A DNA stretch of 64,000 nt. Origin: Stylophora pistillata. Lineage: Eukaryota. Under the pieces are notes generated by a model, which was not told the origin of the DNA, searched no databases, and saw only the letters and a program-made list of their open reading frames with translations. Location: NCBI RefSeq assembly GCF_002571385.2, contig NW_019218147.1:3494-67493 (forward strand), in the 5' to 3' direction. The position numbers and the translations under genes were made by a program. Positions 985 to 56,720 of this stretch are shown in pieces. How positions within the stretch are numbered: position 1 is the stretch's first letter; each line of letters starts with the position of its first letter.

Positions 985-3590
985 AATTTTTTAAAGATAG
1001 CTCCATTTACATTAATTTACAGTACAAGCATGACACGACGAAGAATTTTTTTCGATTACATACAATAAACATACAGTTTTCGAGGATATTATGTAAACTG
1101 CGTTTGAAAAGATCTTAAAGTTGTTAAGTTATTGACTGATTGGAAAGCTTGATAAGGAAGGCACTGTCAATCACTTTCTGGTGATCACGTGCAAATAAGT
1201 AGACTGTTTTCGTTCCTAAGAAATAATTCCTTTATCTAGCTCGTTCCTTTCGACTTCGTAAGCCTAGTCATTCTTTTCAGTGCAAAACAAGTTTTTCTAG
1301 TGACCAATAAAAGCATATCATTCGCCTAGTACATAAATATATCGGTCTTTCATTGTCTTGAGCCTTTCCTACTTACTAAAACTTCGTGAAAGTCCATAAA
1401 ATTTTCTCCAACCCATTTACTGAGTAACGAGAGGCTTCTGAATAAGCCCCAGGCTGGAATAATCTATTGATGATGACCATCTAATCGAAAAATAATTTTG
1501 AATTGCAATATTAACAATGTCGATGAAGCTCGGATTATATTTTTGTTAAAAGGCTGATAGTTTCGAAAGAAACTGTTTGGGGCTGCGTTATATTTTTGTT
1601 AGCTTTATTGTTTGATCATTCGTACGTGCAGTTGTCAAATGTTATTTAATATCAGGAGACATCTGTTGCTGGGCTATTACTAGACTCGTTTAATTTCTTG
1701 TCATTTCTTTAATAATAATAATACTGACGACAATTATGGCAGATCTTTCGAAAATTGTTCTATTTGCCGATCATATTCTATATTTAGAAACGTTTATCGA
1801 TTGTGTTAGCTCGAGTTAAAGCTCCCGCTCCCAACTCTTCTTTTCTCAGTTAAAGGATTTTCGAGTGTAGACTGCCGACTTTCTCGAATTTTTGGGCAGC
1901 TTATCAAACATGTTTGATATGTAAGAAATTGATAAGCTGTGTTTACCTTCAGTAGAATGTAGGGAGCCACCGCAAGAGCTGCTGGCTGAAGAAAAAAGTG
2001 ATCTTTCGGTAGCGAAAAATGTCGTCAAACGTGACTGCAACGATGAATAGAACACACTCTATGTCGAGCTGCTTCAACCCCATAGCGAGACGAATTAGTG
2101 AAAGCTTCGCCTACTCTCTGCTATTTGTTGTGTCGCTGGCTGCAAATACCTTTATTGGAATTATTGTGTATAGGACGAAAGCTCTGCGAACACCAATAAA
2201 CATTTTGATTGTAAACATGGCCATCTCCGAACTATTGCATCCTATTTTCATGTTTACGCGAACGTTAGTAGAATTAAACATGGACAACTACTGGCTGATC
2301 AGCGGTCACCTTGGGCAAGCCTTGTGTAAGCTCAGTCACTTTGCTACAGATGTCTCCACTGCTGTGTCCATTCAGAGCTTGCTGCTGATAGCAGTGAATC
2401 GATTTGTAGCCGTGGTATTTCCCCACTGTTACCCACTGATCAGTTCAAAACGGTGCCGATTCTTTATTCTCGTTATTTGGATCTTCGCCATGGCTGTCCA
2501 TTGCCCATACTTGATTGCCTTCAGAGTTGTCGAGTACTCAAAAGGGCTGTTTTGTCAGTGGCAGTGGAAAGAGGCATTTGGAGAGTCCATATCGCTACAA
2601 ACCTACATCTCAGTGATGGAATTGATCGTTGTTTTCTGCTATGTCCCTTTGGTTGTGATTATTATACTTTATTTTGCTATTGCCTTAAAAACCAAATCGC
2701 AGAAGGTTCCAGGCGAGCAATCAGCTGCCGTAAGAGTACAGTGTTTAAGGAGAGAGAGAGAAATGTTCTGAAGTTTTCCGCTGCCATCGTGTTAGGTTTT
2801 GCTGTATGCTGGCTGCCACTCAGTATCATCATCGCCTTATACTTCTTTTCATCCGACAGAAAAATGATATCATCTTGCGGTTTCCAATACATCCACCTTA
2901 TTAGCTTCTTTCTGGCCTACTCATACTGCACTGTAAACCCTTGCATCTGTTTTATCTTTAGCGGCAATTTTCGCCAAGGTCTTAAGAATCTTCTCAGCTG
3001 CTCTTCTACTGATTAATCAAGCTGCTCAGTCACACTCTTCGCCTCAACCTTTTGCATTCAAGGAATAAAGTTTGGTTTCCCATGCCGACAATTAGTTTCC
3101 TCCATTCCACAACTTCTGCCCAATTGACTGGCTTGGTCAACCGGCTTTGTAAACTCTTGCATTTATATAATTTACAGAAGATTGTAGTCAAGCTCTTAGA
3201 AATATCCTATATGACTATTTAAGAGGAGCCTCGCTTTATTGAATCTGAAACTGATTTTAAATTAATCAGCCCATAAATTGAAGCGATTTTTTAGCTGTAT
3301 ATGTAAAACTGTCTAAGATACGTTACATTCAGCTGATTCCCGAAACTTGTGAACAATTTTAATTTGAGACATTACTTAACATCTTTTTAATAGTTTACCA
3401 TATACCAATAGGTATTATACGTCCTTGTACTAAAAGGAACTTTATTCAACGGTTCTAACCGTTGTTTGAACTTCAGCTCTGGGATTATTATTTTTGTGTG
3501 TATTACAGTTATGAACGTTTTAAGACTCTACTTAAAAATGAGAAAACATAAAATATACATGAAATCTAATCTTTAAGGTAAAAACAATGT
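985..3590 (+). repeat. Segmental duplication block, paralogous to ~11510-14750
   Basis: Collinear matches, e.g. aaagatagctccatttac (985/11515), ggaaggcactgtcaatca (1157/11659) and GPCR 3' end ctcagctgctcttctac (2993/13394). Confidence 0.9.
2019..3016 (+). pseudogene. Rhodopsin-class (neuropeptide-receptor-like) GPCR with one frameshift in a (GA)n run
   Basis: TM1-TM5 lie in ORF 2019..2771 (NMAISE, NRF in place of DRF). TM6-TM7 (FAVCWLP, NPCICF) lie in the overlapping frame ending at 3016. There is an extra GA at 2750-2762 relative to the RRERNVLK motif seen in paralogs. Confidence 0.85.
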
Positions 3591-4800
3591 GGAAAACTAT
3601 GAAGACTAGTAATGCACACACTTGAGATTATTTGTTATCATTGTTATTCCTTTCTATATGGAAAATAAAACATCTGAATGAAATAAGAGTAAAGGAGAGA
3701 ATATATCACCTCTCTTTCCGAAGTCTGACGAAAAATAGTTCATTTGGAAACCTTTAGCATGATATTTCTTTGCAACGAGAATAAATGTCGCAGAGCCCAT
3801 CAAATCAATAAATTTCAACTAGTACTTATCGCAAAAACGAAATAATAGTGACCATTATGAGCCTATCGTCCCCTTGGAGTGACAAACCGTTGAGAAGCAG
3901 AGGGCTGCCAGCCGAGGAGGCCTGTCACTAAATACATATGACTGCAAACTGTGTGCAGGCTCAGAACTTTTCTGACTGTCCTAACTTCTTTAAGACTCAA
4001 AGGGAACAAAGCCTAAAAACATCCGTGCATTTCACTACGCATGTGGACACAAGGACAGATTTCAAGGTACACATTACACGAACATTTATTTAAAAAACAT
4101 GCAAGCAAGTAAACAAAGAAGGGCACATCATCGTCGTCGGCCCTGATCTGTCGATTTCTCACCATTTCCTTTTGATTCAGATCATACCATGGTGATGCCT
4201 TTTACGTTCAACCTGACGGTGAAAATTTTGGCCATTTTACGGCGAACGGTTATCTTCCTTCCTCTGTGATTAAAAGGAAAATTTCTTCAGTTAAATTTTT
4301 TACGACTAACGGCCAAAATCCATCAATTTTTACGCTTGAAAGCTAAATTTTTGGCCGTTTTATGACTAACGGCTAACCTCAAGAATACCCTCACGCAGAT
4401 TGATTATTGATTATCTAATATGAATGAATGCGATCTATGATGCGGAAAAATTTAATGTGATTTGGAATCCATTGTCAGTGGAGAGCTGCAATTCTTTCCT
4501 GATCGATCATGTTGATGTAATGAAGTTACTTTCATTATCAAGAGTCTTGCGAGCTAACTTCAGTCCTTACCAGGCCTTTTGAATTTTACACGCTCGGTTG
4601 TCGTCCCCTTCCTTCGTCGTCCTTATACACTAATAGACACTACATACACTTTATACCGAATATACACTTTGTACAAGGGACATGTGTCTAAAGTGTAGAA
4701 ATATACAGCAATATACACTATGTATATAAGAACGATCCTTCGCAGTAAAGCACTATTTAAGCAATAGTGGAAATCAGACCTGAAAAAAAAAAAAAAAAAA

Positions 4801-5264: not shown

Positions 5265-7675
5265 TTTAGTAACATCCCTTATTTCGTCCAACATAGTTGA
5301 GAAATCAGTTAATAAGAAAACAGAGATTATGCTTACTTCACAGTTTATCCACTATAATTCAGACTAAGATTTCCCACGAGATTACACTGAAACCTCATGG
5401 CCCATGATTGACGTTTCACACCGGAAATGAAAATTGAACCCAGTAAAGATATTATAATAACTAGATTCAATCACTTAATGACCAGCCGTGAGGTAATGAT
5501 ATCAGTATTACTTTGTTCAATTTATAGTGGTATTTGAACCGGGTAGAGTACAATTTGGTCCGAAATCTTACGCGCGAAAAAAAAATAGAAGTACGGATTT
5601 CAGACCGAAAGAGTTCGCATCTTTTTTGTTCTGTCGCACTGTTCCGCGGCATTTTGTAATAACAACGCATTTTATGATAACCTACGCAGATGGTCGCGGC
5701 ATTTTTTAATAACTAACATAATTTGTAATAGGCACTGCAGCTTTTTCTAAAAAGGCGGGTATGTATTTTTGTAAAACCTTTTACAAAATAGGCCGTCGTT
5801 ACAATTGCGCAGGACACGCATTGACTTTGTATGTCAGTAAGAATTAAAATCGTTTGCATTTTGTTTTAACATTGTAAAGAAATAACCCGTCGCATTTGCA
5901 ACAACGCTTACCGCACTTCGTAAGTAAACCCAATGATAGCTTTATCAATGTGACAGCTTTATTATTACCAAGTGCGACACGCGTTATTAAAACTGAATGC
6001 GAAAAATAATATGAAGTGCGACATTTATCACATTATGGGACAGGTATTTCAAAAGCCGCCGATCATTTCAAAGTGCGACAAACAATTTCCGCGTTTGCGG
6101 ATCAAGGAAAAAAAATGTCCTGCATACTCTGTCTTTCATTGAAGTTCATCGGAAATCAAGTCATATGCTTCAGAAACTCGCTCTTTTATAATTGTACGTA
6201 AATTTTCTATATGCCTCTGGTCGGAATAAAAAGAAAGCCAATAATTAATGATCAATGATAACAAAAAATGCCGATGTCGACTTAAATTATTCGTTTCCAT
6301 AAAGTAAACGTTTTCAATTCAAAGTTCATAATCATGTTTAGATAAGGAGAGATAAAACTTGACCGCTTCTTTTTAAAAGCTTCAGGTGGTTCGTAAGTTT
6401 TCATTAAGTACAATGGAGGGCGACTCAAATTTATTTGCCCTTCACCGCTTCGGCAGTGTCAGAATCAAATAGGGGAAAAACTGAGAAAAGAAAAGGCTCA
6501 GATTTTGTAAAATCAAGTCATCTGTGTCAGAAATTCACTCTCTTGTAATTGTATGAAAATTTGCCTCTGATGGCAAACGACATCGAAAAAAAACCAAAAG
6601 AATGATAAAAAAAAAGAGTGCCGATGATGACTTAATGTAAACATTTTTAAATTAGAAGTTCAATAATATGTTCAAATAAAGGGAGTTTTTAGAATGCGCA
6701 GTTGGCTTGTTAGCTCAATTGGTAGAGCGCTGCACTAGTATCGCAGAGGTCAGAGGTCCGAATCCCGTACAGGCCTGATTTTTTTCAGGTCTGTTTTTCG
6801 CTATTGCTTAAATAGCGCTATCTACTGCGAGGATCGTGCATCATATGTGAATTACTTAAGTTCATCATGCTACTTCATTATTGCATCTCATATGTTTGCC
6901 AATCTTGATGACCTTATACTTTGCATAAACCAGTCTTCTTATTCTATTTAGAAAGGTGTTGTTCGTCTTGTCGCGAGCGTGGGACAGAGAAAAACTCTGA
7001 AACTCGAGAAAAACGGATTTCGCGTTCTTACTACCACTGAGCCACAGAGAACTCTGTGGTGATAAAGGCCGTCACTCGATTCACCTTTTACACGCATCAT
7101 GCAGACTGTCAAGATGAGCGATGTAAAAGACGTCAATCACGCTGACAGCATCCCAGCTAGAATCAAGACAGAGGAAACAGGATGATAAATCCTTAATCAG
7201 AGGGAGCGCGGATCACAGTGTAACGGGTATGCTTACATGAAGGGTGAGCTCTCATGCACTGACAGACGAAAAAGTCCAAAAAGAACGGAAGTCTTCAGTT
7301 TGGAAGTTAAAGGAAAGCGCTATTGAGTTGAAAAACTCGGAACAAGTACTGAATTTGTCGTCTCCTTGCTTTGCAACAGGAGTAGCCACCGGTTCAAGCG
7401 TTTGGCCAGGCGAGCCATCAAAATGGGTCGAGCTCAAAAGATTTTGGATCAACTGCAAAACTTCCTTGAAAAATAGTTTACGGAAAATGACAAGCCAGAA
7501 CGTTTGGTTCGACTTGCGCTTCGTTAGTTTTCTTCTTTGTTTCTTTAAGAGATAAAATTTGAAAATTTGTTTTCAGCTGTGTAACGGGACTAAAAGCAGC
7601 ACTTTATAAGACGAGATCGAGTTGTCCTTCAAATTGTCTTCCTGAGAAGTTTACCAATAGGTGTACTCGATACAG
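5265..7675 (+). repeat. Deleted duplicate of 17345-18830 + 21838-22157 + 24658-25171
   Basis: Three collinear blocks match the downstream copy. The junctions at ~6690-6848 (SINE) and ~7135 skip ~3 kb and ~2.5 kb respectively. Confidence 0.88.
6704..6848 (+). mobile_element. tRNA-derived SINE (tRNA-Thr(AGT)-like head 6704-6776)
   Basis: GGCTTGT...ACAGGCC acceptor-like stem, A-box TAGCTCAATTGGTAGAGC, anticodon loop CT-AGT-AT and degenerate B-box GGTCCGAATCC. The T stem is mispaired and a non-tRNA body follows. Confidence 0.7.
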
Positions 7676-7896
7676 GATATCATCTTCACCTGGATTATTG
7701 TTAAAGACTAAACAAAATGAAGGAAGAAACACATCAATCACTACATCAAAGATATGGCAGATGCATTAGTTCAAAATAACTAGATCCTGAAGGCTCAATC
7801 GTCAACTTTCTCTCGTGATGAAAAATTCACACAACAGCAGATGAAAATGAAGCTACGTTTTCTGCCTTTAAAAGCACACACAACCCACAATTCCTC

Positions 7897-7998
7897 AATT
7901 CGCTCCGACGAAGGGCTAACGCTCGAAACGTCAGCTTTTGTAATCGTTACGGTGGCCAATTTACCATTTCAACTTTGTTGATATATCCAAATTATTAA
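7897..7998 (+). mobile_element. Short Penelope-like repeat (family 1) with minimal type-I hammerhead motif at 7902-7935
   Basis: GCT-CCGACGA-A-GGGC(TAAC)GCTC-GAAAC-GTC-AGC. Related copies at 9631-9735, 13440-13535, 42388-42490, 43235-43410 and 56683-56912. Confidence 0.7.
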
Positions 7999-9372
7999 GT
8001 AATAATTTGTCCACAAAGGATAAGAGTAGAATGGGTCTGACCTTCATTAACATTTTGTCTGCAAAACTGGAGCTTTAGTAGGTAAAGTTGCTTTGATAAA
8101 GCTGTTTTGTTGTCAGCTCCTTTTCCTCTTTCATGAAAACCCCTGGGGTGTATCATTTGTCTATTAGTAGCATGGTGGTCTTCACAAGGGTCTAATAGTA
8201 TGTTTGATAAACAGGTTGGGGTGGAATATATTGATTTGAATTTTTCTCATTCTTGGATTGATTGTTCAAAACCAATTTATACCTGTAGCTAATCCTGGCT
8301 TTGTTTCCTTCAGCTCTGTCTTAAACAGAGATGATANNNNNNNNNNNNNNNNNNNNNNNNNNNNNNNNNNNNNNNNNNNNNNNNNNNNNNNNNNNNNNNN
8401 NNNNNNNNNNNNNNNNNNNNNNNNNNNNNNNNNNNNNNNNNNNNNNNNNNNNNNNNNNNNNNNNNNNNNNNNNNNNNNNNNNNNNNNNNNNNNNNNNNNN
8501 NNNNNNNNNNNNNNNNNNNNNNNNNNNNNNNNNNNNNNNNNNNNNNNNNNNNNNNNNNNNNNNNNNNNNNNNNNNNNNNNNNNNNNNNNNNNNNNNNNNN
8601 NNNNNNNNNNNNNNNNNNNNNNNNNNNNNNNNNNNNNNNNNNNNNNNNNNNNNNNNNNNNNNNNNNNNNNNNNNNNNNNNNNNNNNNNNNNNNNNNNNNN
8701 NNNNNNNNNNNNNNNNNNNNNNNNNNNNNNNNNNNNNNNNNNNNNNNNNNNNNNNNNNNNNNNNNNNNNNNNNNNNNNNNNNNNNNNNNNNNNNNNNNNN
8801 NNNNNNNNNNNNNNNNNNNNNNNNNNNNNNNNNNNNNNNNNNNNNNNNNNNNNNNNNNNNNNNNNNNNNNNNNNNNNNNNNNNNNNNNNNNNNNNNNNNN
8901 NNNNNNNNNNNNNNNNNNNNNNNNNNNNNNNNNNNNNNNNNNNNNNNNNNNNNNNNNNNNNNNNNNNNNNNNNNNNNNNNNNNNNNNNNNNNNNNNNNNN
9001 NNNNNNNNNNNNNNNNNNNNNNNNNNNNNNNNNNNNNNNNNNNNNNNNNNNNNNNNNNNNNNNNNNNNNNNNNNNNNNNNNNNNNNNNNNNNNNNNNNNN
9101 NNNNNNNNNNNNNNNNNNNNNNNNNNNNNNNNNNNNNNNNNNNNNTGCTTTTTTTTTTCACTGATACTGTAGTTTGACACACACACGCGCACACACACAC
9201 ACGCGCACACACATTTATGTCTTAGTATGCTTTAGCCTTGCGACTACATATCAATAGACTGGCCTGCATAGACCATAGCTTTCAACAGTCGTCTCCGCCA
9301 GCCAGGCCAATTACGACAATCATCAAGTAATGAAGAAGTGAAATATACAAATTTAAAATAGACGAAGGTTAT

Positions 9373-9735
9373 TTCCTGAGAAGTTTACCAATAGGTGTAC
9401 TCGATACAGGATATCATCTTCACCTGGATTATTGTTAAAGACTAAACAAAATGAAGGAAGAAACACATCAATCCCTACATCAAAGATATGGCAGATGCAT
9501 TAGTTCAAAATAACTAGATCCTGAAGGCTCAATCGTCAACTTTCTCTCGTGATGAAAAATTCACACAACAGCAGATGAAAATGAAGCTACGTTTTCTGCC
9601 TTTAAAAGCACACACAACCCACAATTCCTCAATTCGCTCCGACGAAGGGCTAACGCTCGAAACGTCAGCTTTTGTAATCGTTACGGTGGCCAATTTACCA
9701 TTTCAACTCTGTTGATATATCCAAATTATTAAGTA
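9373..9735 (+). repeat. Near-identical direct copy of 7639-8001, including the hammerhead motif at 9636-9669
   Basis: I see only two substitutions over ~360 bp. The two copies flank the 8337-9145 gap. Confidence 0.9.
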
Positions 9736-10116
9736 AAGTAGAAATACCTAAAAAAATGATGTGTGACAACAAACCAGAATAAAGGCCTAGAATGATTGGT
9801 TTCGAATGATATATTCAAATTTCAGTCACTTTCGCAGTGAGCGGTAATACAAATAGAGCTGCCTGTGACTTCCACGAGAGCAGCGCTTTAATTCTCTGAT
9901 TAGTTGTCTCGATACAAACTTTACTTCAAGCTCAACGCTAATTACTTTCGATACAAACTTTTCATTCCTCGCTCGTTCGACTCGAAAAGCACGTGTTCAA
10001 GACTATTTTCGGACTGCAATCAATGCTAAGTAAATATTAATAGCGTCACACCCTTATTACGTAATCATGTTCTCGACAGCTTGGCTTCAGCGTTCACTAA
10101 AGAACGCGTCTACGAA

Positions 10117-10560
10117 ATGGCGATAAACTTAAGCGTAAAAGTGAATGGAACCCAGCCGTCAGTGCATTAATCCCACAGCAGACAGGATTGGGTACACAAT
10201 TGCTTGCTGCCTTTTATTTATTGTTCCTCTGTTTGGAAATTCCTTTATTGGAATAATTGTTTACATGACGAAAACTATGCGGAAACCCATAATTTATCTA
10301 ATTTTTAACATGGCAGCGTCAGACCTCCTGCTGCCGATATTCTGTATGTCGATATAATTGGCCAATCAGCGGCCACCTTGGCGAAGCTTTGTGTAAACTT
10401 TTTCCTTTTTCGGCCGATCTCTCAGCTGCCTTGTCAATTCAGAGCCTGCTAGTGATAGCAGTGGATCGATTTGTAGCTGTGGTATTTCCCCTTCGTTCCC
10501 ACTCATCAGTTCAAAATTGTGACCCTTCCTCGTCCTCGCTACTTGGATCATCGCCATAAT
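10117..10560 (+). pseudogene. Truncated GPCR pseudogene, duplicate of the 15124 gene
   Basis: Aligns with 15124-15592, and the upstream region 9735-9885 aligns with 14917-15085. It has frameshifts, a deletion after TM2, a TGT>TGA change near 10520, and lacks the 3' half. Confidence 0.88.
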
Positions 10561-12035
10561 TTTTACCTGCTCGTTGAAAATGTTTTTCACAAATGCAGCT
10601 CAGTATTGACCGTAAGGGGAAGAAATTTTAGAAAATTACATTTTATTCAGCTGGCTCTTGTGTCTTCACAAAAAAGCAAGAATATAAATACGTCATTGAA
10701 CTGCACACTGAATCTGGCCATACAGGAACAAGTCTGGTGGAATAGATCTATTAATGTGCGCAAATTAACCATTACGTTAAATTATCGGGTAAAGATTGGT
10801 CTATCAAAGCAGGTGTGTCAATTTACTGGGTAGACCATTAATTTGCATGCATTTGTAAATGTTCTCCTTCTATGACGAATATTTACTGCACGCCGACTAT
10901 AGGTGGTCATAATGAAGATGTTTCAAAAACAAATGTCAGTGGCATTATCTTTAAGCGCATTTTATAGGTGAATGTTTGCCAAAGCAGTTAGCTTCATTTC
11001 GTGCATGCAGTGTCTGAAGTGGCTTCCAATCAGCGGATGCCTTTCTTTGCTTTTACTCCAACTTGCTCAAAACACCCACTCTTTGAAAAGTATTTCACGA
11101 AGAAGACGGCAGCCGTCAAAGGGCTTAAAATATCACTGTCAACTGTCAAAAAGGAAAAGTTTTGACCGTCAACTATAGGGGCTCATCGCCGCTAAAATCC
11201 TGTTTCAAATTCTGTTATGTAGAACCTGTGCAGATTATAAATTCTTTGCTTAAAACACTGGAACAGCAATTGAACAAACGGAATAGAATTTTGGAAGACG
11301 GAAATTAAGCTACACAAGCAGAACGAAATTTAAGACGTCACAAAGACAGGCATACCAAAAATTGGAGCATCAGAATATGAATTGATGCTGTTTCAGTTTT
11401 ATGTTCTGTTGAACAACGGACCGAGTGAAACCATTAAAACAAATAAATGAAACAAACTTTTTGATAAACTTTTGAAATTTTTCAAAAGAGCGGAGTCTAC
11501 AGTTGAAGTTTTAAAAGATAGCTCCATTTACAAGCATGACACGACCAGGGTCTTTTTACCACTTACAATTAAACATACAGTTAATAGAGGATACTATGTT
11601 ATGCGTTTGAAAAGTTCTCAAATTTGTTAACTCATTTATTTAGGAGGAGGCTTGAAAAGGAAGGCACTGTCAATCATGTACAGGTGATCACGTGCAAATG
11701 AGCAGACTGTTCCTAAGAAATACTAACTCAGTTTATCTGGCTTTTCCTTTTCGATTTCGAAAGCCTAGTAATTATATTCAGTGCAAAACAAGTTTTTCTG
11801 GAGACCAATAAAAGCATACCATTCGTCTCGCACATAACAAGATCCATCTTTTATTGTCCTAAGGCTTTAATTTCCTTTAACAAAAATTTCGTTAAAATCC
11901 ATCAAATTTTCTTTAAAACTCCAATCCGTCTACTGAGCAACGAGGCTTCTGAGTAAGTTCCAGGCTAGATTAAACTATCGATGACAGTCTGATTGAAAAA
12001 TAATTTTGAATTGCAATGTCACTGAAGCACGGATT

Positions 12036-12405
12036 AACCAATGGTAAACACCACGGCGTGCACCATGTTGAGTTATGGGTGCACGCGGGAGGTTGCTAAG
12101 CACGAAAGAAACGTAACAGTCGTGCGAGGCGATAGAGCGACTCTAGCTTCTTGAGTACTTAGTAAACCTTCTAAGTGCATCCATAACTCAATAGTGTACT
12201 CTGTCCATTTGTCTTATAACATATCATTGATACATTGTAGCAAAAGAGTTTTCTTTTATTTAACAAATCTTAAGTGACCAGAAAAAACAAGCGCGCGTGA
12301 AAAACTAGTCTTTACATTTGCTCACGTCGACAGCGTACACCCACGGGCAAACGGTGGACGCTGAATTGACCAATCAGAGCGCGCGCTTTCCTTTGGTTGT
12401 TATAA
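12036..12405. mobile_element. Non-autonomous repeat insertion with internal hairpin
   Basis: Absent from the paralogous site near 1535. Inverted segments ttgagttatgggtgcac ... gtgcatccataactcaa. Confidence 0.65.
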
Positions 12406-12734
12406 TCATATTTTTGCTAGCTTAATGCGTGATCATTCGTACCAGCAGTTGTCAACTCTCATTCAATATCATTAAACATCTGTAGCTGGGCTCAGTTTCT
12501 AGACTCGTTTTCTTGTCATTTCCTTAATAATAATAATGATGACAATTCTAGGAGATCTTTCGAAAATTATCCCTTTTGCCGACCATATTTTATATCAGAA
12601 ACGTTTATTGATTATGTTAGTTCGGATGAAAGCTACTTCCAACTCTTCTTTTCTCAGTTACAGAATCATCTCGGATGTTGACTCTCGATTTTCTCGAATT
12701 TCTGCATGGGCATGCTTATTAATTAAACATGCAA

Positions 12735-13417
12735 GTATGTTGGTGGCAGTGGAAAGAGACATTTGGGGAGTCCATATCGGTACAAACCTACGTGATGGGT
12801 TTAATCTTTATTTTGTGCCATGTCCCTTTAGTTCCGATTGCCACACTTTATTTTGCTATTGCCTTAAAAATTAAATCGCAGAAGATTCCAGGCGAGCAAT
12901 CAGCTACCGTAAGAGTACAGCATTTGAAGACAGAGGCAAATGTTCTGAAGATGTCAGTTGCCATCGTGTTAGGTTTTGCTATATGCTGGCTGCCACACAG
13001 TATCATCATCTCCTTAATCTCCTTTTCATCCGACAGAAAAACTATGTCATCTTGCGGTTTCCAATACACCTACCTTAGGGGCCGACCATTTAACTTTTGA
13101 GGGGAGGGGGTGGGTGATTTCTGGTCATCAAGAATTTTTTTTTCTAGCAATCTGCTGTGCAGGATATTTTTTCCGTTCTAAATGCTCATTTTTTCTGTTA
13201 CATTTGGGCTGCATGCCATTTTTTTCTTCCAATAAGCGCTTGCAGGAAATTTTTTTTCAAAATCACCCACCCCCCTCAAGAGTTAAATAGTCAGCCCCTT
13301 ATTACCTTCTTTCTGGCTTGCTCATACTGCACTGTAAACCTTTGCATTTGTTTTACCTTAAGCGGTAATTTTCGTCAAGTTCTTAAGAATCTTCTCAGCT
13401 GCTCTTCTACAGATTAA
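12735..13417 (+). pseudogene. 5'-deleted GPCR pseudogene (ECL2-TM7), duplicate of the 2019 gene, split by a MITE
   Basis: WQWKETFGESISVQTY...FAICWLP...SSCGFQY, then the MITE, then FFLACSYCTVNLCICF...SCSSTD*. The equivalent of ~1915-2550 is deleted. Confidence 0.9.
13078..13298. mobile_element. MITE, PIF/Harbinger-like
   Basis: TIRs ggggccgaccatttaac...gttaaatagtcagcccc, 3-bp TTA TSD (13075-77 / 13299-301), and an empty site in the paralog at ~2898. Confidence 0.88.
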
Positions 13418-13439
13418 TCAGCAAGCATCAAGGAATAAA

Positions 13440-13535
13440 ATAATTTGAGTATATCAACAAAGTTGAAATGGTAAATTGGCCACCGTTGCGATTATAAAAG
13501 CTGACGTTTCGAGCGTTAGCCCTTCGTCGGAGCGA
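13440..13535 (-). mobile_element. Family-1 Penelope-like insertion with hammerhead motif (13500-13533) and 10-bp TSD
   Basis: TSD aaggaataaa at 13430-13439 and 13536-13545. Empty site at 3060-3069. Confidence 0.82.
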
Positions 13536-14338: not shown

Positions 14339-15123
14339 TATATCACTGTTTTAGAGCAGCCTCGTTTTATTGTATCTAAAATTTTTAAATTAGCACTCGA
14401 TGATGGTCAGCCAATAAATTTAAGGGATTTTTAGCTGTATATCCAAAACTGACTAAGACACGTAACGTTCAGTTGATTTCCGAAACTCGTGAATAATATT
14501 AATTTGAGACAATACTTTACATCTTATACTCATATACTGATAGGTATTACACGTCCTTATACCAAAAGAAACTTAGCTCAACGGTTCTAACCGTTGTTTG
14601 AACTCTAGCTCTAGGATCTATATTTTTGTGCCTATTACAGTCATGTAAATAAAGATAGAGTTTCTGATTAATATGTAATGAAATGAGAAAGTATAATACA
14701 CATGAAATCATAGTTAGTATGATGAAATCTAACCTTTAAGGTGAATACTACAAAAAATGGTTTGAAGCTGGTTACGTGTATATGTTCGACATTATATGTT
14801 ATCACGGTTATTCCTTTCCGCGTGCATCCATAACTCGATATACGCACCCTAAGCATGAACAAATTCTTAATCGGTACATTTTACCTAGTTGAGTATTCAA
14901 ATTTGCGTCACTTCTAAGTAAAGTAGAAAGACTTAAAACATGATATGTGACAACAAACCCAAATAAAGGCCTAGAGTAATTGGTTTCGGTATGTTTTACT
15001 TAAATGAGATATTCAAATTTCCTTCGCTTTCACAGTAAGTGGCCGCACTACGAATAGGGCTGCCTGAGACTTCCATAAGAGCAACGCTTGGCTTCAGCGG
15101 TCACTGAAGACCGCTTCTACGAA

Positions 15124-16128
15124 ATGGCAATGAACTTGAGCGTAACTGTGAATGGAACCCGGCCGTCAAACTGCTTTAATCCTACAGCAGAAAGAATTGG
15201 GCACACAATTGCTTATTGCCTTTTATTTTTTATTTCACTGGTTGGAAATTCCTTTATTGGAATAATTGTTTACAAGACAAAAGCTTTGCGAAAACCCATA
15301 AACTATCTTATTGTGAACATGGCTGTATCAGACCTCCTGTTGCCGATTATCTTGTTCCCGAAAACTGTAACAGAGATGCATGTCGATAATTGGTTAATCA
15401 GTGGCCATCTTGGCGAAGCTTTGTGTAAGCTTGTTCCTTTTATGTCCGATCTCTCTGTTGCCGTGTCAATTCAGAGCTTGGTACTGATAGCAATGGATCG
15501 ATTTGTAGCTGTGGTATTTCCCCTTCGTTCCCCACTCATCAGCTCAAAATTGTGTCCCTTCTTCATCGTCGCTACTTGGATCATCGCCATAGCTATAGTC
15601 ACCCCGTATCTGCTCGCGTTCAAACTTGTCGAATTTTCTCATCTGGAGTACAAGTGTGTGCGGCAATGGATGCGTGTATCTGACGATCCCTCGTCGGTGA
15701 AAAAATACTTTATGGCACTTTTTATCGTATTTTTTTACATCCCCTTCGTTCTGATGTTTATTCTTTACCTTGTGATTCTTTTGAAACTGAAGTTCCAAAC
15801 AAGTCCAGGCGAGCATTCAATGAACGCTCAAATTCAGCGTTCGAGAAGAAAGAGAAATGCGCTCAAACTGTCCGTTGCTATTGTTTTAGGGTTCGCTGTC
15901 TGCTGGTTTCCGTTCAGTATTTATACTTTAGCAATTTTTGCGGTTAAAAATAATTCTACAATACCCTGTGGAATCCTGTTATTAGGGCAATTTTGTCTGT
16001 TACTGAGCCGAACAAACAGCGCTATGAACCCCTGTATCTGTTTTATATTAAGTACAAATTATCGTCGAGGTCTTAAGAATCTCTTCAGTAACTCTTATGT
16101 TGCCAGGGCTAACAGAGATGCCATGTAA
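15124..16128 (+). CDS. Intact single-exon rhodopsin-class GPCR (neuropeptide-receptor-like orphan)
   Basis: ATG at 15124. GN (TM1), NMAVSD (TM2), DRF, FAVCWFP and NPCICF are all present, with N-terminal N-glycosylation sequons and an uninterrupted 7TM frame. Confidence 0.93.
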   Translation: MAMNLSVTVNGTRPSNCFNPTAERIGHTIAYCLLFFISLVGNSFIGIIVYKTKALRKPINYLIVNMAVSDLLLPIILFPKTVTEMHVDNWLISGHLGEALCKLVPFMSDLSVAVSIQSLVLIAMDRFVAVVFPLRSPLISSKLCPFFIVATWIIAIAIVTPYLLAFKLVEFSHLEYKCVRQWMRVSDDPSSVKKYFMALFIVFFYIPFVLMFILYLVILLKLKFQTSPGEHSMNAQIQRSRRKRNALKLSVAIVLGFAVCWFPFSIYTLAIFAVKNNSTIPCGILLLGQFCLLLSRTNSAMNPCICFILSTNYRRGLKNLFSNSYVARANRDAM

Positions 16129-19500: not shown

Positions 19501-20544
19501 CTAATTTGTTTCACTTGCCCCTCGACGCTGGAAAACAACACTTTCTGCAGTATTGACTTGATTATTGAAGAAAGGGGAGCCTTGCGTTAGATTCTTGAAA
19601 CCTTGACGGTAATTTCCACTAAAAATCAAACATATGCAAGGGTTTATAGCACAGTTTGATTGAGCCAAAAGAAAGGCAATAACGGTGAAGTATTCGAAAC
19701 CTCAGAATGCGTTTTCGGATCTGAAATGCTTCGGTAGTAACCAGTGGATCGTATAAGGAAACCAGCACGCTGCAAACCCCAATACAATAGCAACAGACGT
19801 CTTAAACACATTTCGCTCCCTTTTCCCGCGTTGTTGCTCAATGTTGGTTGATCGTTCGCCTGGTTTCTTCTGGAACTTGAGCCTAAAACAAATAACTGTG
19901 TAAAGTATGGCAATCAAAACGAATGGAACATAAAATGAAACGGTAAAAACTGCTTGGTTATACTTTTCTACCGATGAGCTGACGCCAAAAGTATCACTCC
20001 AATTTCGCTCGCACACTAAACCGTCTGGATACTCAACAAGTTTCATTGTGAAGAGATATGGAGACGAAACGGCCATTGCGACAATCCAAGTTGCGAGGAT
20101 GAAGAAGGGGCACAGCCCTGGACTAATCAGTGGGGATCGGAGCGGAAATAGCACAGCCACAAATCGGTCCACTGCCATTAGAACTAAGCTTTCAGCAGAC
20201 ACAGAAACAGAAACATGGGGCAAGAACATTACAAGCTTACACAAGGCCAAACCAACAGGACCGCTGATCAGCCAAGGTTCAACAGTGAATAACGATGCCA
20301 CAATCGGCGGTATAAGAAAAATCGGCAAAAGAATATCAGATATGGCCATATTGACGATGAAAAAGTTGATGGATTTTCTTAGAGTTTTGGTCTTGTAAAA
20401 AATAATTCCAATCAATAAATTTGCAATCACTGAAACTACAGAAATCAAGCTGTAAATAACAGTGAATCCGATTCTTCTCACTGTAGGATTGAAGCAAAAT
20501 GTTGGCTGCGTACCATTTGTCGTTGTGTTAAATTTTTCCGACAT
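19501..20544 (-). pseudogene. GPCR with full 7TM frame interrupted by a single in-frame TGA (19702-19704)
   Basis: A 280-aa ORF runs to TGA, then the same frame continues GFEYFTVIAFLLAQSNCAINPCICLIFSGNYRQG...ETN* to 19501. Confidence 0.85.
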
Positions 20545-21739
20545 CCCTGGAGATCAAAGTATAACTCCAAAGCAAAGTATTTGTTAACCGTAATGGCACT
20601 CTTTCTATGTCGGAGCGAAGTGTTCGATGAATCCTACGCCCTGAATTCACAAAACATGAATAAAAGCAATTTTATAATTAAAGAAAAAAACAAACGTGAG
20701 TGTGTGGTTCTCCACAGTCGTATTTAAAACTGCACTTGTGTTATCGGCGGAGAACTGACGAAAGCGTATGACTTGAGGTCCCAGGTGATAACACCTTTAC
20801 CGAAACGTCAAAGAATCTTCCCGCCATGCATTACGTTTGATGCTGCTTTCTCTGTCTAAACCAATTTGATTTAGATGCGTGCTTCGGATAAATCGTCATG
20901 TGTGGTACATGTTTTATGTGAGTAGAATGACACAAGTTTTCCTCATCTTCATGGAATGTAGTTTATTTCTTGCTTAGTCATACTCAATACTAAAGGAATT
21001 TTACACAAAATATATTAAGTTTAAAGTTAATTTGTCTTGGGTTTTGTTATCCATTGACACAAATCAATTACCAAATTAATCATTTATAATCATGATTCCG
21101 CTGAGAGGAGACAGAAAGAAATTATGGCATTTCAATAAATAATCCTTTTATATTCTTTTAAACAAAATTGGGAATTTTCGTAACGAATGGTGTCGTACTC
21201 GGAACTCTCACGTCAGTTAAAATAATTTAGCGCGACTAAAATAGTTTTAAATTTTAGTTGAAATAAATTATTTACCTATATCAGAACGAGCTTCTCTTCT
21301 TCACCTCGTGTCATTTAAATTTGGGAAAAGTGGGAATGTTTCAATCAAGGTGAATAATGCCCAGGGCCACGTTATTCAAAACCAGATCAAGACTTTTCCT
21401 GAGTCGACTACATACAACTCATTGACATGGTAGAATGGTTGCCATGGAAGTTTAACCTTGCGTGCGCTGTGATTGGTCGGGAGATTACACCATAATTTGC
21501 ATCATCTTGATGCTAGCAAAAAGTAGAGTAGAGGCTTCCATCTTAAGGGAATTATTACCTCAACTTCGCCACAAACTTTGAGTTAAATCTCCTGATTGTT
21601 TCATTTCTAAAGCGGATTATTAATTATGGGAAATTAAAGATAACGTTGGTTGAGAGTGCTTTCGTGCATACGAAAAATTTTTCGATTCTCAGCGAGTAAG
21701 TGTAGTAAGGAGTACGTCAGTCCACTTCGTCCACTTCGC

Positions 21740-24024
21740 CTACATATTATGTTCCTGCAGAAGACAAAAAATTCAATAAAAAAATGTGTATTACAAGAGC
21801 TAGGTCATTTGTTTGTCCATTTTCAAAGTTAGCCTGAATTACTTAAGTTCGTCGTGCTCCCTCCATCCACAACCATCCTTAACATCCTTACTTTATTATT
21901 GCATCTCTTATATTTTCGAATCTTGATGACCTTATAGTTTGCATAAACCAGTCTTCTTATTCTATTTAGAAAGGTGTTGTTCGTCTTGTCACGAGCGTGG
22001 GACAGTGAAAAAAAATCTGAAACTCGAGAAAAACCAATTTCGCGCTCTTCTGCTCTGCCACTGAGCCACGGAGAACTTTGTGATAAAGGCCGTCACTAGG
22101 ATCACCTTTTACACGCATCATGCAAACTGTCAAGATCAGCGATGTAAAAAGCGTCATTTAGGTAAGCAAACAAATAAAAGAATGACTTACATACTTTCCA
22201 AACGTAGCTCCCTTACACAACCTCAGTAACTACCCAACATCTTCTTCCCCCTATTCATAGCCACTGTAACAATACTCCTCCAAGGCCTTACCATTACTGA
22301 AGGATAAAGATTCTTTTGCAGCTCCACGCCAAACTGGGCCTCCCACGGTTCCTTGATCACTTTGACCAAGGAGGAAAGGGTGGGGAATGTTTCTGTCTTC
22401 AAAATCCACTGACTCTCGCCGTTCCCCACGGGGGCGTCCTGTACAATAACAGTAAAGCGACCATATAACACTCCCATTTTAATTGACTTACATTGGTTAG
22501 CCTGCAGTAAATGGTTTGAACCCGGGGGTAACATGTGAAGGTGTAGTCTGATCGTCCGGGTGAGTGTAGTCCTGAGAAGGACTGTTGTCGGTGGTAGTGA
22601 CTGACGTTTCGACAACTACCACCCTTCTCAGGACTACACTCACCCGGACGATCAGACTACACCTTCACACTGTGGCTTTATGTACACAAAAACAGCTTTA
22701 TGCACAGGTTGTCGAAACGTCAGTCACTACCACCGACAACAGTCCTTCTCAGGACTACACTCACCCGGACGATCAGACTACACCTTCACATTGGTTAGCC
22801 TGTTGAATACCGCATCACTTATAGTAATAATAGTAAAGCTCAACATGACCGCAATCGTTAACTTCCTCATTGTCCTTACAATCCCTGACCATATAACACT
22901 CCCAATTTAATTGACTTACATTGGTTAGCCTGTTGAATACCACATTACTTATAGTAATAATATTAAAGCTCAACATGACCACAATCATTAACTTCCTCAT
23001 TGTCCTTACAATCCCTGACCATATAACACTCCCACTTTAATTGACTTACATTGGTTAGCCTGTTGAATACCACATTACTTATAGTAATAATAGTAAAGCT
23101 CAACATCACCACAATCATTAACTTCCTCATTGTCCTTACAATCCCTGACCATATAACACTACCATTTTAATTGACTTACATTGGTTAGCCTGTTGAATAC
23201 CGCATTACTTATAAAATCTTATTGTTAGTATAAAAGGCTATCAGTGGAATTTAACCAAGTTATACATCCAATTTGCTCAGCTTTTGTACCAGCTCCTACT
23301 CTTTGCATTCTTGTTCAAATAAGTTACTTCAAGTCCCGAGATCTAAGCTTAAGTCTTGTGGTGATCGAAGATTTTCTATTGCAGGACGTAAATTATGGAA
23401 CAGCAGATATGTATCTTTAAGAAATGCCGATTTCTTGAATTATTTCCAAAAACACTTAAAGACATATTTAATTCGCCAAGCCTTTTTCGATTTGTAAATA
23501 TATTTCTATTTAATTTCCATGCTTACATATGTAGTTGTTAGATTTTTCAGGTTTTTAATACATTTTGTGATATTGTTAAGCGCCTAGAGCAATTAGTGAT
23601 ATAGAAATAAAGTTTATTATATTATTATTATTATTATTAATTTTATTATCATTGTTTTATCAAATATCATTATTGTTTTATCAAATATCATTATTGTTTT
23701 ATCAAATATCATTATTGTTTTATCAAATATCAATGTTGTTAACTGTTATAATTGCAGTTACTATTATTATCATTATTGTTAGTCATCGCCATTATTATAA
23801 CTGTTAACATAATTATTATTATTATTATTAGAACTTTTAATGCTCTTCACATTCTTCTCATTACTATTATTATTTTCATTTTCATCTTCTCCCTTAAAGC
23901 TCAAGAAGTAAACGTAAACGAAGCGTGTTTTTTCTTAAATCTTTTAGCAGACATTTTAATGTATTTTTTGATATATAAGGTTTTTATCATAATTTTTGTC
24001 AATATTTTGGTGATTTTATTATTA

Positions 24025-41476: not shown

Positions 41477-42439
41477 ATGTCGAAGTCAGTGAAGAAACTT
41501 GTCGAGGAGACAAAAGACCAAGGTTATACAGAGCTAGATCTCTGTGACAGGAGCTTGTCTACGATTGCAGACATTCCAGGATTGAGTAAGTATTCTGGAA
41601 GGTCTTCGAAACAGACATTTGTTCATCAACAATGTCGTTTGATGATCGTCCTCGGGTTTTTTTGTTTTTAGCTGTGCTTTCGCTGACTTTGATTTCCGAT
41701 TTCCGATTAATCGATAATTTATCCCTCATTTTCTTATTTTACAGCGCAGTTGAGGCATTTGGTACGCCTTACTTTGAGTCATAACAGAATAACAGGTGAT
41801 TTTATTTTAGATCAATGAAAATCTTATCACAGGATATCTTTACTTCTCTGTCTAAAAGGGTGGGAAGTTGTGGAAATTCTGGGCATTCCTTTGCAGGGTT
41901 AGGGCTACTTGTACGTCCTGTTTCAGATGTTACTTTTCCGATACCTCGTAAAGAATTGGAGATTATAGTCATTTAAAGGGAAATACTTTGGGCAGTGGTT
42001 CGTCAACTTTAGTTCTCCAGTTAGGCCTAAAATTGTTGAGCTGTAGTCTGTAAATTCGGGGTAAAGATCGTATGAGGGTTTTGACGATTACTTGAAATGG
42101 GTGTATAATTATTTGTACGATGTGCATTTATTCATCATGGAGAAAACTTTTTGGTGTCACTGTTTCAAGAAATAACTAATTCACTTTATGTAATTAAATT
42201 AAAGATTGTTTTATATGGGTATACCCGGTATGTTAATGCTTATTAAGTACATTTTAGTCTATGTACTTTAAATATAAATTCTTGAAAATCGTACGTGTCT
42301 CTTCTTATTTAATTAGCTCTCCCTGAATCGATTGGTTCACTTGAAAACCTGGAGTTCTTGAATGTGTTTAATAATCACATTGAGGTATGTGACCAATTTG
42401 CAATTTCAGCTTAGTTGATATAACCAAATTACCTTGATA

Positions 42440-42476
<37 letters not shown>

Positions 42477-43364
42477 TTCACCCTTTATTTGAAGATAATT
42501 TAGTTCATCAATGGTGTTGATAATGTAACATGGCCATTGTACAGAGTTTCTAAGCTGTTATAAATGCCTAGTTTTTTATTGGTTTGATTACAGTTTGGGG
42601 AAAAATGTGCAAAACAGAAAATGCATTAGAAAAGCCTTCAAATTTTCCTGTGCATCTTTTACAGGAGCTGCCAATGTCACTAGGTTCCTTAAAGAAACTA
42701 AGACACTTCAATGCAGCGTGAGTATTTTGGATTACAATGTCTATTGACTAACTGATTGGAAGGGCTGACAGAAACACGATGGCCTCATCATCATGATGTA
42801 TAGACTTTTCTGTGCTCAACTCATGTCATGACCTTTAGTAAGGTCTATGTGTCCATCAACTGTAGCATAGCTCATTAAAATATCTGATGTAAGGAAAGAG
42901 GGGACAGCCCTGCTTGAGTATAACACTTGCAAAAAGATAGTTATAAAGTAACTTGCTATAAATTCAAGTGTGCATGTCTGTGATTCATGAGAACTTTGCA
43001 AAGCTGACCACCTGTTCTATAACTTTTGCCAAATTGCAATGTTTTAGGGCATGCTGTGGAACAATTTAAACAGTGAAAATACATAATATTTACTTTGGCA
43101 ACAGCCATCTTTTTCACTCAGTAACCATCCTGGATCAGCCCTTGACAAGGAACTGATTTTACTTGTCACATGATACTAAATCCCTCTTCTTTGCAGGGTT
43201 AGTTACTTGAACACAGGTTTTGCATAACTTAAGATAATTTAATTTGGTTATATCAACTAAGTTGAAATTGTAAATTGGCCACCGTAACGAGTTAAGCTTT
43301 TTAACTCATTATAGTGGCCAATTTACAATTTCAGCTTAGTTAATATAACCAAATTACCTTGTTA

Positions 43365-43401
<37 letters not shown>

Positions 43402-45159
43402 TTCACCCTTTATTTTTAGATAATCTAGTTCATCAATGGTGTTGATAATGTAACTTGACCATTGTACAGAGTTTCTAAGCTGATGTTTTGAGCTGATGGA
43501 GGGCTAGCACTTCATTTGTTAGCTTTAGAAAACTCCCTGCAGTGACTAGTTTACAATATCAAGTCAGCTGATAAAACCAATTATTTTTAAACTACCCCCC
43601 CCTCAGTCCAGCACCACAGTTTCTTTAGAAAATTACCCCCCTTGTTCACTTACCATAACTTAGTTGACAATTGCATTTTTCAGGGTGAATCGACTACGTT
43701 CTCTGCCCAGGGGCTTAGGAACAGCATCTGGATTGGAAATCTTGGATTTGACATATAATAACCTTAATGAGAAGTCATTGCCAGGAAACTTCTCTGTTAT
43801 GAGTAAGTTATACAATAAGTAGCAGTTAATTACCACATCAGAAAGCAGAAGATCAGTGGTAAAAAAGCCTCCAGCAAACTAGTCTGGTTTCCTTCAATTA
43901 CATGAACTTCCCCTTAACACAGCACCATTTTCAAATTTGAGGTTGAAGAGAATTGATAGATCGAATCTTTCACACCTTCATTCTCATTTACTTTTAACAT
44001 TAATGTGGGTTGCTAGTGCCATGCAGCAAAACAACCAATGGATTTTAAGGTACTAATAATCTAATAAAAGTACTGGTATGCTTGATTTACAGAACAGCTA
44101 CGAGGCCTCTACCTCGGAGACAATGACTTTGAAACATTACCGCCAGAAATAGGAGAGCTCAGAAACCTTCAAGTGGTAACTTCCTAAAATAAGATTATAT
44201 CTGTATGTAACGGGTTACAGAAATTATCTCAAATTTCTGTATTTGAAGTGTGTTTCCCCAAAGCCTATTATTAGCTTGCTATATACAGTGAAAGGTGTAA
44301 AGTAATTGACTAAGAACTCAAAGTATTTTCCAATTAAATTTTCAAACTAAAATGCAGATTTACTTTATTGTTACAGCTTGTGTTAAGAGACAATGATCTG
44401 TTTGAACTACCAAAAGAGCTGGGAAATTTGAGTAGACTGAAGGAACTTCATCTTCAGAACAACAGACTCACTGCTCTTCCTCCAGAACTAGGTACAGTGT
44501 ACATATACAGTGCTCAACATTCTAAAGTCACCCCCTTCCTTTCAAAACAAAACAAAATAATAGAAAAAATAAGTTGCACACAGATGGACCATAAGGGGCA
44601 GTTAAAATTTTGACAAACAGACAGCACCCAGCATTTGGTGAAGTGCAAAATGTTCATCAGTAAAGTGAATATCAAGGGAGATATCTACATCATCTCCTTC
44701 CCTTTGACCCCTGCAGTAAAATTAGAGATTCTAGTGATTAGGGTTTGGAATGAAATTCACCACTCTGGTAATCACAATACACAATATTATGCAACATTTA
44801 CTCCAAAGTATTAAGTTTTCTCCTGAAATGATTGACTTTGAAGGTGAACTAGACATGGCCAACCCACGACATGTATTCAAACCAGAAGGCAATTCGTGGA
44901 TACAGCAGCTTGAGGATCAAATTGTTCTGGGACCATCACATGTGTTTGAGTACATCAAGACTGATGGATACAAGAGGTTTGTTGCAGAAGACAAATCTTA
45001 ACCACAAATCATCTTCCTTTACTGCCCCTCTTCTTCCAATGAATTTTCTTCATTCTTTTCCCTGCATTTAGTTTGTACGAGCGTCATGTTACTTCTGGCA
45101 ATGCTCCACCACCAAAGAGGGAGAAGGAGAAGACACTGAAGCGAAGCAGAAGAAAGTGA
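41477..45159 (+). CDS. RSU1: Ras suppressor protein 1 (LRR protein), 9 exons
   Basis: MSKSVKKLVEETKDQ..ELDLCDR; LTLSHNRI; LEFLNVFNNHIEELP; LEILDLTYNNLNEKSLPGNF; LYLGDNDFETLPPEIG; LRDNDL..LQNNRLTALPPELG; LGPSHVFEYIK. Exons approx. 41477-41585, 41744-41794, 42317-42385, 42665-42717, 43684-43802, 44092-44175, 44377-44491, 44844-44976, 45071-45159. AATAAA at ~45424. Confidence 0.93.
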
Positions 45160-55300: not shown

Positions 55301-56686
55301 TATTTCCGAAATAGAATGAGAGAACGATATTGTTTGGTCAGGCTGTAATGAACGTTAGACAATAGAGGATCTTATCAAGAAATCAAGAGAAAATAAGTAA
55401 AAGCAAGCAAGGTCTTCAAAGTCACTGTTCAGGGGATTGTGCAAAACTTAAAGAGAGTACCCAGGACTCGAAACTAACTTTTCAACTTACTAGCCAAGTG
55501 GCTATAGTGATAACCTTAGATGTTACGACAATTGCAGTTTGTTTACTAACCAAACTGGCAAGTGGAAATCAAAAACCACCAGCCAAAACTGCGTTTCTAT
55601 TAGTCTATAGCTAGTTGGCTACCGTTAGTGTCGAGCCCTAGTACCCTTATAGAAGAGGTACCATTGATTAGGCTGAGATGTAATCAACTCCTAGAGCTTC
55701 CACTGTCTTCCAAAAATGATAAGTAATTTTTTTAGTAAATTATACTCAGGATATCTAAGAGTGGTCCTAATTCCTGTTGTTCCTTTTCTTAAAGATGTTG
55801 TTGCAAACCATGGACCAAAAGTTGGGAAAACACAACCACTACAGAAGCAGGCTGGTGAGATGACATTAGAAGGAAATAAGCTGTGGGTTGGAATGAATTG
55901 AAAATAGGCTCTATTTTCAAATGCTCCCCGCACCTTGCAACACCTCCTAATTGAGGACGAAAACTTTTTTTCTGAAATTCTGAGTTGAATTATTTGGAAT
56001 TGGATTGTGGGTAAGTGGACAAAACTTACCGGCACACCCATACACAGAAGTTTTTTTTAGACATAGCATATATCTATTTCCTAGACACCTCACCATTATC
56101 TACAATCCAGGTTGCACCATGTGAATCACTGCTTGGTCCAGCACTAAAATAACAATATTTAAAAGAGGTGGACACAGGGCACCTTCTAGCATTTTCTCAT
56201 TTGCTTTTGTTGAGACCTGCCTGTTTTCAACCTATTTTATTCCAGACCGACCCCACAGACAAATCAATGGAATTTCACAAGGATTTCTGCATCAAACATT
56301 ATGCAGGAGATGTAATGTAAGTCAGGGCTAAACGTAGGCGTATTAAAAGATGATCAAAAGATTGATAACTTATTTGTAAACAGAAGCTCATCTTCTGTTT
56401 TGTTTTTGATAGCCTCTCCAATCCTTTCTCTCCTTAGATTCAGATATCGATTCTCCTCACTGTCTGCCATTTGTTCTTACAACTGAGTTTGACTATGTGA
56501 ATGTGGTGTTGTAAAAAAAGTCGTTTTTCTGCTTCACATGATATTGATAGGGGAAGGATGAATTCCTTGTTAGTCTCTCCTGTAGCATGTTCCAAAGCGT
56601 GCAGTTAGTAAACGGAGCGAAATATTCAACGGTGCGATAATAGCGGCAGAGCGAAAACGCGACTCGTCCCAAACCTATAATGGGGA

Positions 56687-56720
<34 letters not shown>

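Follow-up and report, generated by a model that had tools for sequence, protein, structure and literature searches.

Hammerhead motifs in a Stylophora pistillata contig as probable ends of a Neptune-type Penelope-like retrotransposon with a U4C core in its largest subfamily

A 64,000-nucleotide (nt) stretch of the Stylophora pistillata genome (contig NW_019218147.1, positions 3,494 to 67,493, forward strand; hereafter the window) contains three minimal type I hammerhead ribozyme motifs, at 7902-7935 (+), 9636-9669 (+) and 13500-13533 (-). Our analysis makes it likely that these motifs are ends of a Neptune-type Penelope-like retrotransposon, in whose largest subfamily core position 4 is C (C4) in place of U (U4), and that the 96-nt piece carrying one of them was copied from an uncut transcript by internal priming and run-off at a predicted start. 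Judged from sequence, the motifs belong to the pseudo-long terminal repeat (pseudo-LTR) of this element and do not represent a stand-alone 96-nt element. A sequence check bore out the positions and the sequence reported for them in a first-pass annotation of the window: all three read GCT-CCGACGA-A-GGGC-TAAC-GCTC-GAAACGTC-AGC, with one G-U pair in stem II. Positions within the element are counted from core base C3 (= 0), which places the predicted cut before +28.

A genome query with the 96-nt piece gave 47 matches among 40 scored of 144 candidates, and the flanks of 30 fetched loci share sequence both upstream and downstream of it. In the longer copies, the sequence upstream of the motif holds a reading frame with a reverse transcriptase (RT) thumb, a C-X4-C-XX-C linker and a GIY-YIG motif. 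The gap-free 510-amino-acid (aa) frame of locus L078, whose stop lies ~100 nt before the CCGA motif, matches RVT_1 (E 6.9e-7) and GIY-YIG (E 2.7e-4, just under the curated cut-off). Similarly, a 603-aa frame in L077 matches RVT_1 (E 1e-6) and GIY-YIG (E 6.7e-4, below the curated cut-off). Shorter pieces of open reading frame (ORF) in L021 gave no Pfam match, and a PDB sequence search with the ORF gave no match either. The linker between RT and endonuclease is CARARCKTC in both L078 and L077 and has the CX2-5CxxC pattern, a trait of the Neptune/Nematis clade (PMC8557442).

In copies that continue beyond the tail an ATG follows, ~230 nt downstream of the core, giving the order ORF stop, ~100 nt, ATTCG, hammerhead, end 1 (+90), end 2 (+150), ~80 nt and ATG. 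The run from ORF end through hammerhead to ATG is seen in L391 and L405, and that from pseudo-LTR to ATG in L389. As in other endonuclease-bearing (EN+) Penelope-like elements, there is a single ORF with RT and C-terminal GIY-YIG, a pseudo-LTR from partial tandems, 5' truncation, inverted 5' copies and an optional tail, and the layout is the pseudo-LTR arrangement of that group. The published Neptune element of Acropora digitifera has the same 12 upstream bases, stems (GCU/AGC and GGGC/GCUC), UAAC loop, extra A, palindromic ACGU, GUC cut triplet and pseudo-LTR position (Cervera and de la Pena, 2014; PMC4209133 and its supplement); it differs in having U4, whereas the dominant S. pistillata subfamily has C4. 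The link to Penelope-like elements suggested in the first-pass annotation is supported by this match and by the RT and GIY-YIG frames joined to the motif. Assignment to Neptune rather than Nematis would follow from the linker and from the identity of the hammerhead region with the published element.

Further, a branch-point-like, pyrimidine-rich and CAG stretch stands 18 nt before the ATG and ~60 nt past the tail (L389, L391, L357), suggesting an intron acceptor in the 5' region of the element; a spliced join was found in none of the 13 genomic matches to the downstream sequence. A set of forty ORF matches with 100% identity was considered as a sign of youth and rejected: many of them begin exactly at gap edges, pointing to a collapsed repeat that the assembler positioned there. 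Upstream of a Penelope copy in L086 (G000:C1111, ~2400-4000) there are decayed reading frames, the translation of which may resemble a Polinton-type capsid gene.

By the criteria of PMC4209133, the motif has the features of the minimal type I hammerheads of Penelope-like elements, namely stems I and II, an extra base between positions 9 and 10.1, a G10.1-C11.1 pair and a palindromic 15.2-16.2. It departs from the invariant core CUGANGA at position 4, all remaining core positions being consensus. When copies were anchored on downstream sequence only, C4 was present in 51/54 C-anchored copies, while U-anchored copies of the sister subfamily had the canonical U4 in 29/33 and C4 in 4/33. An Rfam scan of the window returned six matches, none of them to a hammerhead model.

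Exact 33-mers across the genome number 3,238 for CCGA (0 for a reversed control), 420 for CTGA and 78 for CCAA. Because CCAA is the mirror product of CpG decay, ~80 of the 420 CTGA 33-mers are attributable to decayed C4 copies; by eye, C-subfamily downstream bases occur in 6/30 CTGA loci, which scales to 84. With an open spacer, the genome-wide comparison of the two cores that had been proposed at first pass yields 5,027 CCGA matches (control 175), 98 of the first 100 listed belonging to this Penelope family, and 3,983 CTGA matches (control 162) from several families. Downstream anchors number 4,953 for the C subfamily and 549 for the U subfamily, a difference of ~nine times. Pairwise divergence is 6.8% among C copies (28 copies) and 12.6% among U copies (15 copies), and the ratio of nonsynonymous to synonymous substitution (dN/dS) of the ORF between the two lineages is 0.21-0.26 in 3/3 comparisons that aligned (of 5 loci). 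In a tree the C and U sets split partly by construction, as the anchors lie inside the aligned region. C4 was present in 36/38 long copies and is common to at least three sub-lineages, of 16, 13 and 11 copies, and so was inherited along a succession of source elements. In the largest and least diverged subfamily U4C is fixed, and the earlier view of the shared C as a subfamily trait, not random decay, is upheld by the 33-mer counts and the anchoring.

RNA-library contigs contain the stretch in 3/3 RNA runs, with T at position 4 in 7-10% of the depth. They were not counted as evidence of expression, since they may be read-through or DNA; public runs with the stretch include coral metagenomes.

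In the window, the copies of this element and their target sites are the following.

13440 to 13535, minus strand: Neptune-type Penelope-like end fragment of 96 nt; starts 5-6 nt upstream of core C3 and ends at the first fixed 3' site (+90)
13500 to 13533, minus strand: minimal type I hammerhead motif; core position 4 is C (13529), predicted cut between 13503 and 13502
13430 to 13439, plus strand: left target-site duplication, AAGGAATAAA
13536 to 13545, plus strand: right target-site duplication, AAGGAATAAA
3060 to 3069, plus strand: empty site with a single AAGGAATAAA, in the 3' flank of a paralogous G-protein-coupled receptor (GPCR) gene
7843 to 7996, plus strand: 5'-truncated end fragment; hammerhead at 7902-7935, C4 at 7906, 3' end at +90
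7843 to 7858 and from 7859 on: sub-parts of that copy, an inverted 16-nt piece and then the direct part with a TTTAAA box
9577 to 9730, plus strand: duplicate of the 7843 copy; hammerhead at 9636-9669, within a 364-bp duplication across an assembly gap
56671 to 56912, both arms: back-to-back pair of the sister U4 subfamily; the minus arm has a CTGA core and tail, the plus arm begins inside the core
43240 to 43417, both arms: two back-to-back arms from the same superfamily, truncated below the hammerhead; a partial duplicate lies at 42389

A fourth hammerhead copy, with the canonical CTGA core, is thus present at ~56732-56826 (-). At 13440-13535 the 10-bp target-site duplication and the empty paralogous site are as first described, AAGGAATAAA standing on both sides of the insertion and once at 3060-3069. 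The recent move of a ~96-nt piece, also proposed at first pass, holds as recent retrotransposition with target duplication; the empty site dates the insertion only to after the split of the GPCR paralogues, the flanks of which are 80-91% identical. The copies at 7902 and 9636 are not 96-nt cassettes; they run ~45 nt further 5' of the motif and begin with a short inverted piece. They had been recognized as duplicates of each other, and stretches 7639-8002 and 9373-9736 indeed show 2 differences in 364 bases, with an 809-N gap between them; they may be one copy assembled twice. Because both lie in this 364-bp duplication across the gap, the window would hold two independent C4 copies at most. 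A second empty site, for the 7902/9636 copy, was not found, its right flank aligning to ~14915 and its left flank not.

For the mapping of copy ends, the first 100 places in the C-anchor list were all used, and 94 of the first 100 in the U-anchor list. A script found 101 C and 93 U arms, from which 16 C and 1 U were dropped for ending at a gap, leaving 85 C and 92 U arms; the design is blind to truncations below about +49. Starts of the C arms fall at -7..+7 in 46 cases, at -56..-8 in none, at +8..+48 in 11 and at -57 or further up in 28, and 52/92 U arms likewise begin at -7..+7. Cleavage-defined 5' ends were sought among the mapped arms, and no peak was found at the cut site: 1/85 C arms and 1/92 U arms begin at +28. 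With the U reference, 3/93 U arms begin at the cut site, at palindromic inverted junctions. The 3' ends of C arms lie near +150 in 48/85 and near +90 in 35/85. An inverted partner is present in 52/85 C arms, and a target duplication of 7-18 nt in 14/33 non-inverted arms, compared with 8% in swapped flanks. Loose ends at the same three boundaries occur in contigs of 4/4 public runs.

Relative to the A of ATTCG, position -31 is occupied by TTTAAA in 58/61 C copies and by TATAAA in 2/9 CTGA copies, counts that represent one ancestral arrangement and are not independent. This is the textbook spacing of a TATA box. In addition, CCAAT is found 57 nt upstream of the A at -7, CCAAT itself being the filter in that count. 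A cap-derived extra G at 5' ends was seen in a few copies and was not recurrent, and the idea was dropped.

These ends could arise as follows. RNA polymerase II would start at ATTCG (-7), the endonuclease would nick AT-rich DNA, and RT would prime at +90 or +150 in one or other of the pseudo-LTR copies that the RNA carries. From the 5' copy, synthesis would run off at the 5' end of the transcript and give inserts of ~96 or ~157 nt, from the 3' copy it would give longer, randomly truncated inserts, and inverted pairs would be two complementary DNAs joined head to head. The simplest reading of the insert at 13440-13535 is that it is of the 96-nt run-off kind. Because run-off copies contain the 5' half of the hammerhead, templates would have been uncut in both subfamilies, and self-cleavage is probably dispensable for copying; U4C may lower cleavage and be tolerated, as cleavage would not be needed to make the template. 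In the Anolis element, RT initiation is internal, at two sites downstream of the hammerhead, both DNA strands are extended, and hammerhead-dead mutants insert equally well in vitro (PMC11167929). Drosophila Penelope has an internal pseudo-LTR promoter (PMC2377424). More tentatively, the dominant lineage may have spread to ~5,000 copies with a crippled core, over half of its insertions being run-offs of uncut transcripts and the hammerhead being kept mainly as a promoter-proximal or RT-binding structure; the U4 and C4 sisters would then form a natural one-base experiment. If the copies did come from uncut RNA, the element is able to spread without cutting itself.

Several points weigh against copying from an uncut transcript that begins at -7. 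A complete gap-free element or ORF was not recovered, the fragmented assembly breaking inside long copies. No RNA ends were seen in the public runs, all of which consisted of contigs. Thirty of the 46 C arms in the peak lie at inverted junctions, many with TTCG-type microhomology, which could itself concentrate 5' ends. Between S. pistillata and A. digitifera the motif is unchanged but for position 4, while the downstream sequence differs, and this conservation argues for selection on the motif; the overlap of the motif with the predicted core promoter may be another reason for it. Cleaved RNA could exist and yet be a poor template or have another role. A viroid variant with the same U4C change is reduced in vitro but tolerated, and active enough, in vivo (Ambros and Flores, 1998, as cited in PMC3088659).

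It is conceivable, though in our judgement unlikely, that the element is as described and that its C4 hammerhead still cleaves in vivo, protein-assisted or as a dimer, U4C being tolerated or even favoured because it weakens an inactive hairpin of the core with CGUCAG. In secondary-structure predictions the hammerhead can be drawn but is not the minimum-energy fold (-5.6 vs -9.8 kcal/mol with C4). The core pairs instead with CGUC(AG), at -12.3 kcal/mol with U4 and -9.8 with C4 against -5.6 for the open form; the U4 form is a 6-bp trap, and the C4 form keeps stem I formed. U4C is predicted to weaken the inactive trap while altering a conserved core base, which keeps a working ribozyme under consideration. 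The cost of a double hammerhead in a 315-nt tandem is also lower with C4 (16.3 kcal/mol) than with U4 (19.4), every other core position is consensus, the Anolis hammerhead cleaves only with its protein (PMC11167929), and the viroid offers a precedent. The viroid U4C is rare and occurs in a full hammerhead with tertiary contacts (PMC3088659); in the S. pistillata subfamily C4 prevails, and the motif is minimal. However, starts at the cut site are nearly absent from both sets of arms, and an active dimer (-9.5 kcal/mol) is modelled far above two misfolded monomers (-19.6 with C4, -24.6 with U4), in models that leave out tertiary contacts and protein. Even canonical minimal hammerheads are poor cleavers (PMC4209133), and whether and why those of Penelope-like elements cut in vivo is an open question (PMC4209133; PMC11167929). 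Within the family, stem changes are scattered, mostly CpG decay, and without covariation. In other CTGA families of the genome, stem I of at least 3 bp is kept in 21/30 loci and stem II in 25/30 despite differing stems, in a count with no shuffle control and with many loci from one family.

That the 5' peak reflects microhomology-guided joining, or release of RT at a hairpin, and not a transcript start seems to us very improbable, and would leave the identification otherwise unchanged. The frequency of inverted partners among C arms is in keeping with it, as are recurrent junctions sharing TTCG or similar and the self-priming at palindromes proposed for rotifer elements (PMC3846280). Yet the peak has a sharp upstream limit at -7, with nothing in -8 to -56, stalling at a hairpin should leave ends on its 3' side (+30), and 5/8 non-inverted copies with a target duplication of at least 10 nt also begin at -7..+3.

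The self-propagating, non-autonomous ~100-nt retrozyme or short interspersed nuclear element family supposed at first pass retains almost no credibility and is already largely refuted: near-identical short copies with target duplications are numerous, a 315-nt tandem derivative has the same deletion junction at two loci, and retrozymes derive from Penelope pseudo-LTRs (bioRxiv 10.64898/2026.07.22.740005), but the diagnostic bases are common to short and ORF-bearing copies, the short copies lack the upstream TATA- and CCAAT-like motifs and form one end of a length continuum from ~40 nt to kilobases, and the window copies are not in tandem, so that the piece is to be seen as the end of an autonomous element.

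The tandem derivative (L383, G000:C459, ~99.3-101.0 kb) consists of 5.3 copies of a 315-nt unit, 99% alike and ending at a gap, each unit being a pseudo-LTR derivative with a C4 hammerhead. A related 319-nt dimer (L376, G000:C67, ~568.3-568.9 kb) has the same deletion junction. Tandem units of 170-400 nt, each with a hammerhead, as required of a retrozyme, were found at G000:C459 only, the window copies being single or inverted. The 315-nt array is a candidate nascent retrozyme, in line with the origin from Penelope elements that has been proposed for retrozymes; what the window holds is not an array of this kind. A 245-nt tandem trimer (L394, G000:C276, ~391.9-392.6 kb) has the same pseudo-LTR with the hammerhead deleted. 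A second hammerhead-bearing repeat family, with stem I GACT/AGTC, is represented in the window by a back-to-back pair at 22533-22791, truncated inside the hammerhead, and is intact in L106, L126 and L129.

Among known systems, Anolis Poseidon PAc (Frangieh et al., 2024; PMC11167929) shares two fixed 3' ends downstream of the hammerhead, AT-rich targets and an uncleaved RNA template. The two elements differ in the position of the ORF, which in PAc opens within the hammerhead but in S. pistillata has its ATG ~230 nt after the core, preceded by a possible splice acceptor, and in tail length (30-40 nt in PAc, ~60 nt in S. pistillata). A run-off peak at a predicted start is not described for PAc in the portion of PMC11167929 consulted. 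The non-LTR retrozymes of corals likewise have a type I hammerhead and a Penelope origin, and the array at G000:C459 is in their size range; their hammerheads, however, are canonical, cleave efficiently and stand in tandems of 220-245 nt, while those of the window are dispersed, minimal and C4 (PMC7229834; bioRxiv 10.64898/2026.07.22.740005). The kind of element and the motif are already known; new are the end map and the fixation of U4C in the core of the dominant subfamily. The CCGA core was not found in the text alignment of the PMC4209133 supplement (image figures not covered), and no report of a C4 Penelope hammerhead was found in the literature, although the supplement of PMC7229834 (16 Acropora millepora families), which was not covered, may show a C4 family.

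With a single core base separating the 34-nt motifs of the two sister subfamilies, cleavage and transposition assays have a matched pair to hand. For internal initiation, the end map serves as a test at the genomic level, and it makes a precise prediction of the start site. In addition, descriptor scans that require CUGA would miss the commonest hammerhead-like motif of the S. pistillata genome.

The insertion at 13440-13535 lies downstream of a GPCR gene, of which the following part precedes it.

12723 to 13418, plus strand: 3' portion of the GPCR paralogue that precedes the insertion; an inverted-repeat element at ~13075-13297 interrupts the frame, which is also broken further upstream

This GPCR is split into separate frames and the 3-kb paralogue is frameshifted, breaks that may be due to assembly error. 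The AATAAA downstream of the GPCR stop is duplicated, as first noted, in a target duplication that is real; an effect on the poly(A) signal is doubtful, and the second AATAAA is probably inconsequential, because both paralogues are broken. The inverted-repeat element is ~220 bp long, with terminal inverted repeats, and sits inside the GPCR coding sequence. Single-exon class A GPCR paralogues form a cluster at 2013-3016, 10163-13418, 15079-16128 and 19589-20553; the gene at 15079-16128 is open, unlike the broken ones at 2 kb and 10-13 kb. A tRNA-like Rfam match (47.4 bits) lies in a repeated region at 6704-6776.

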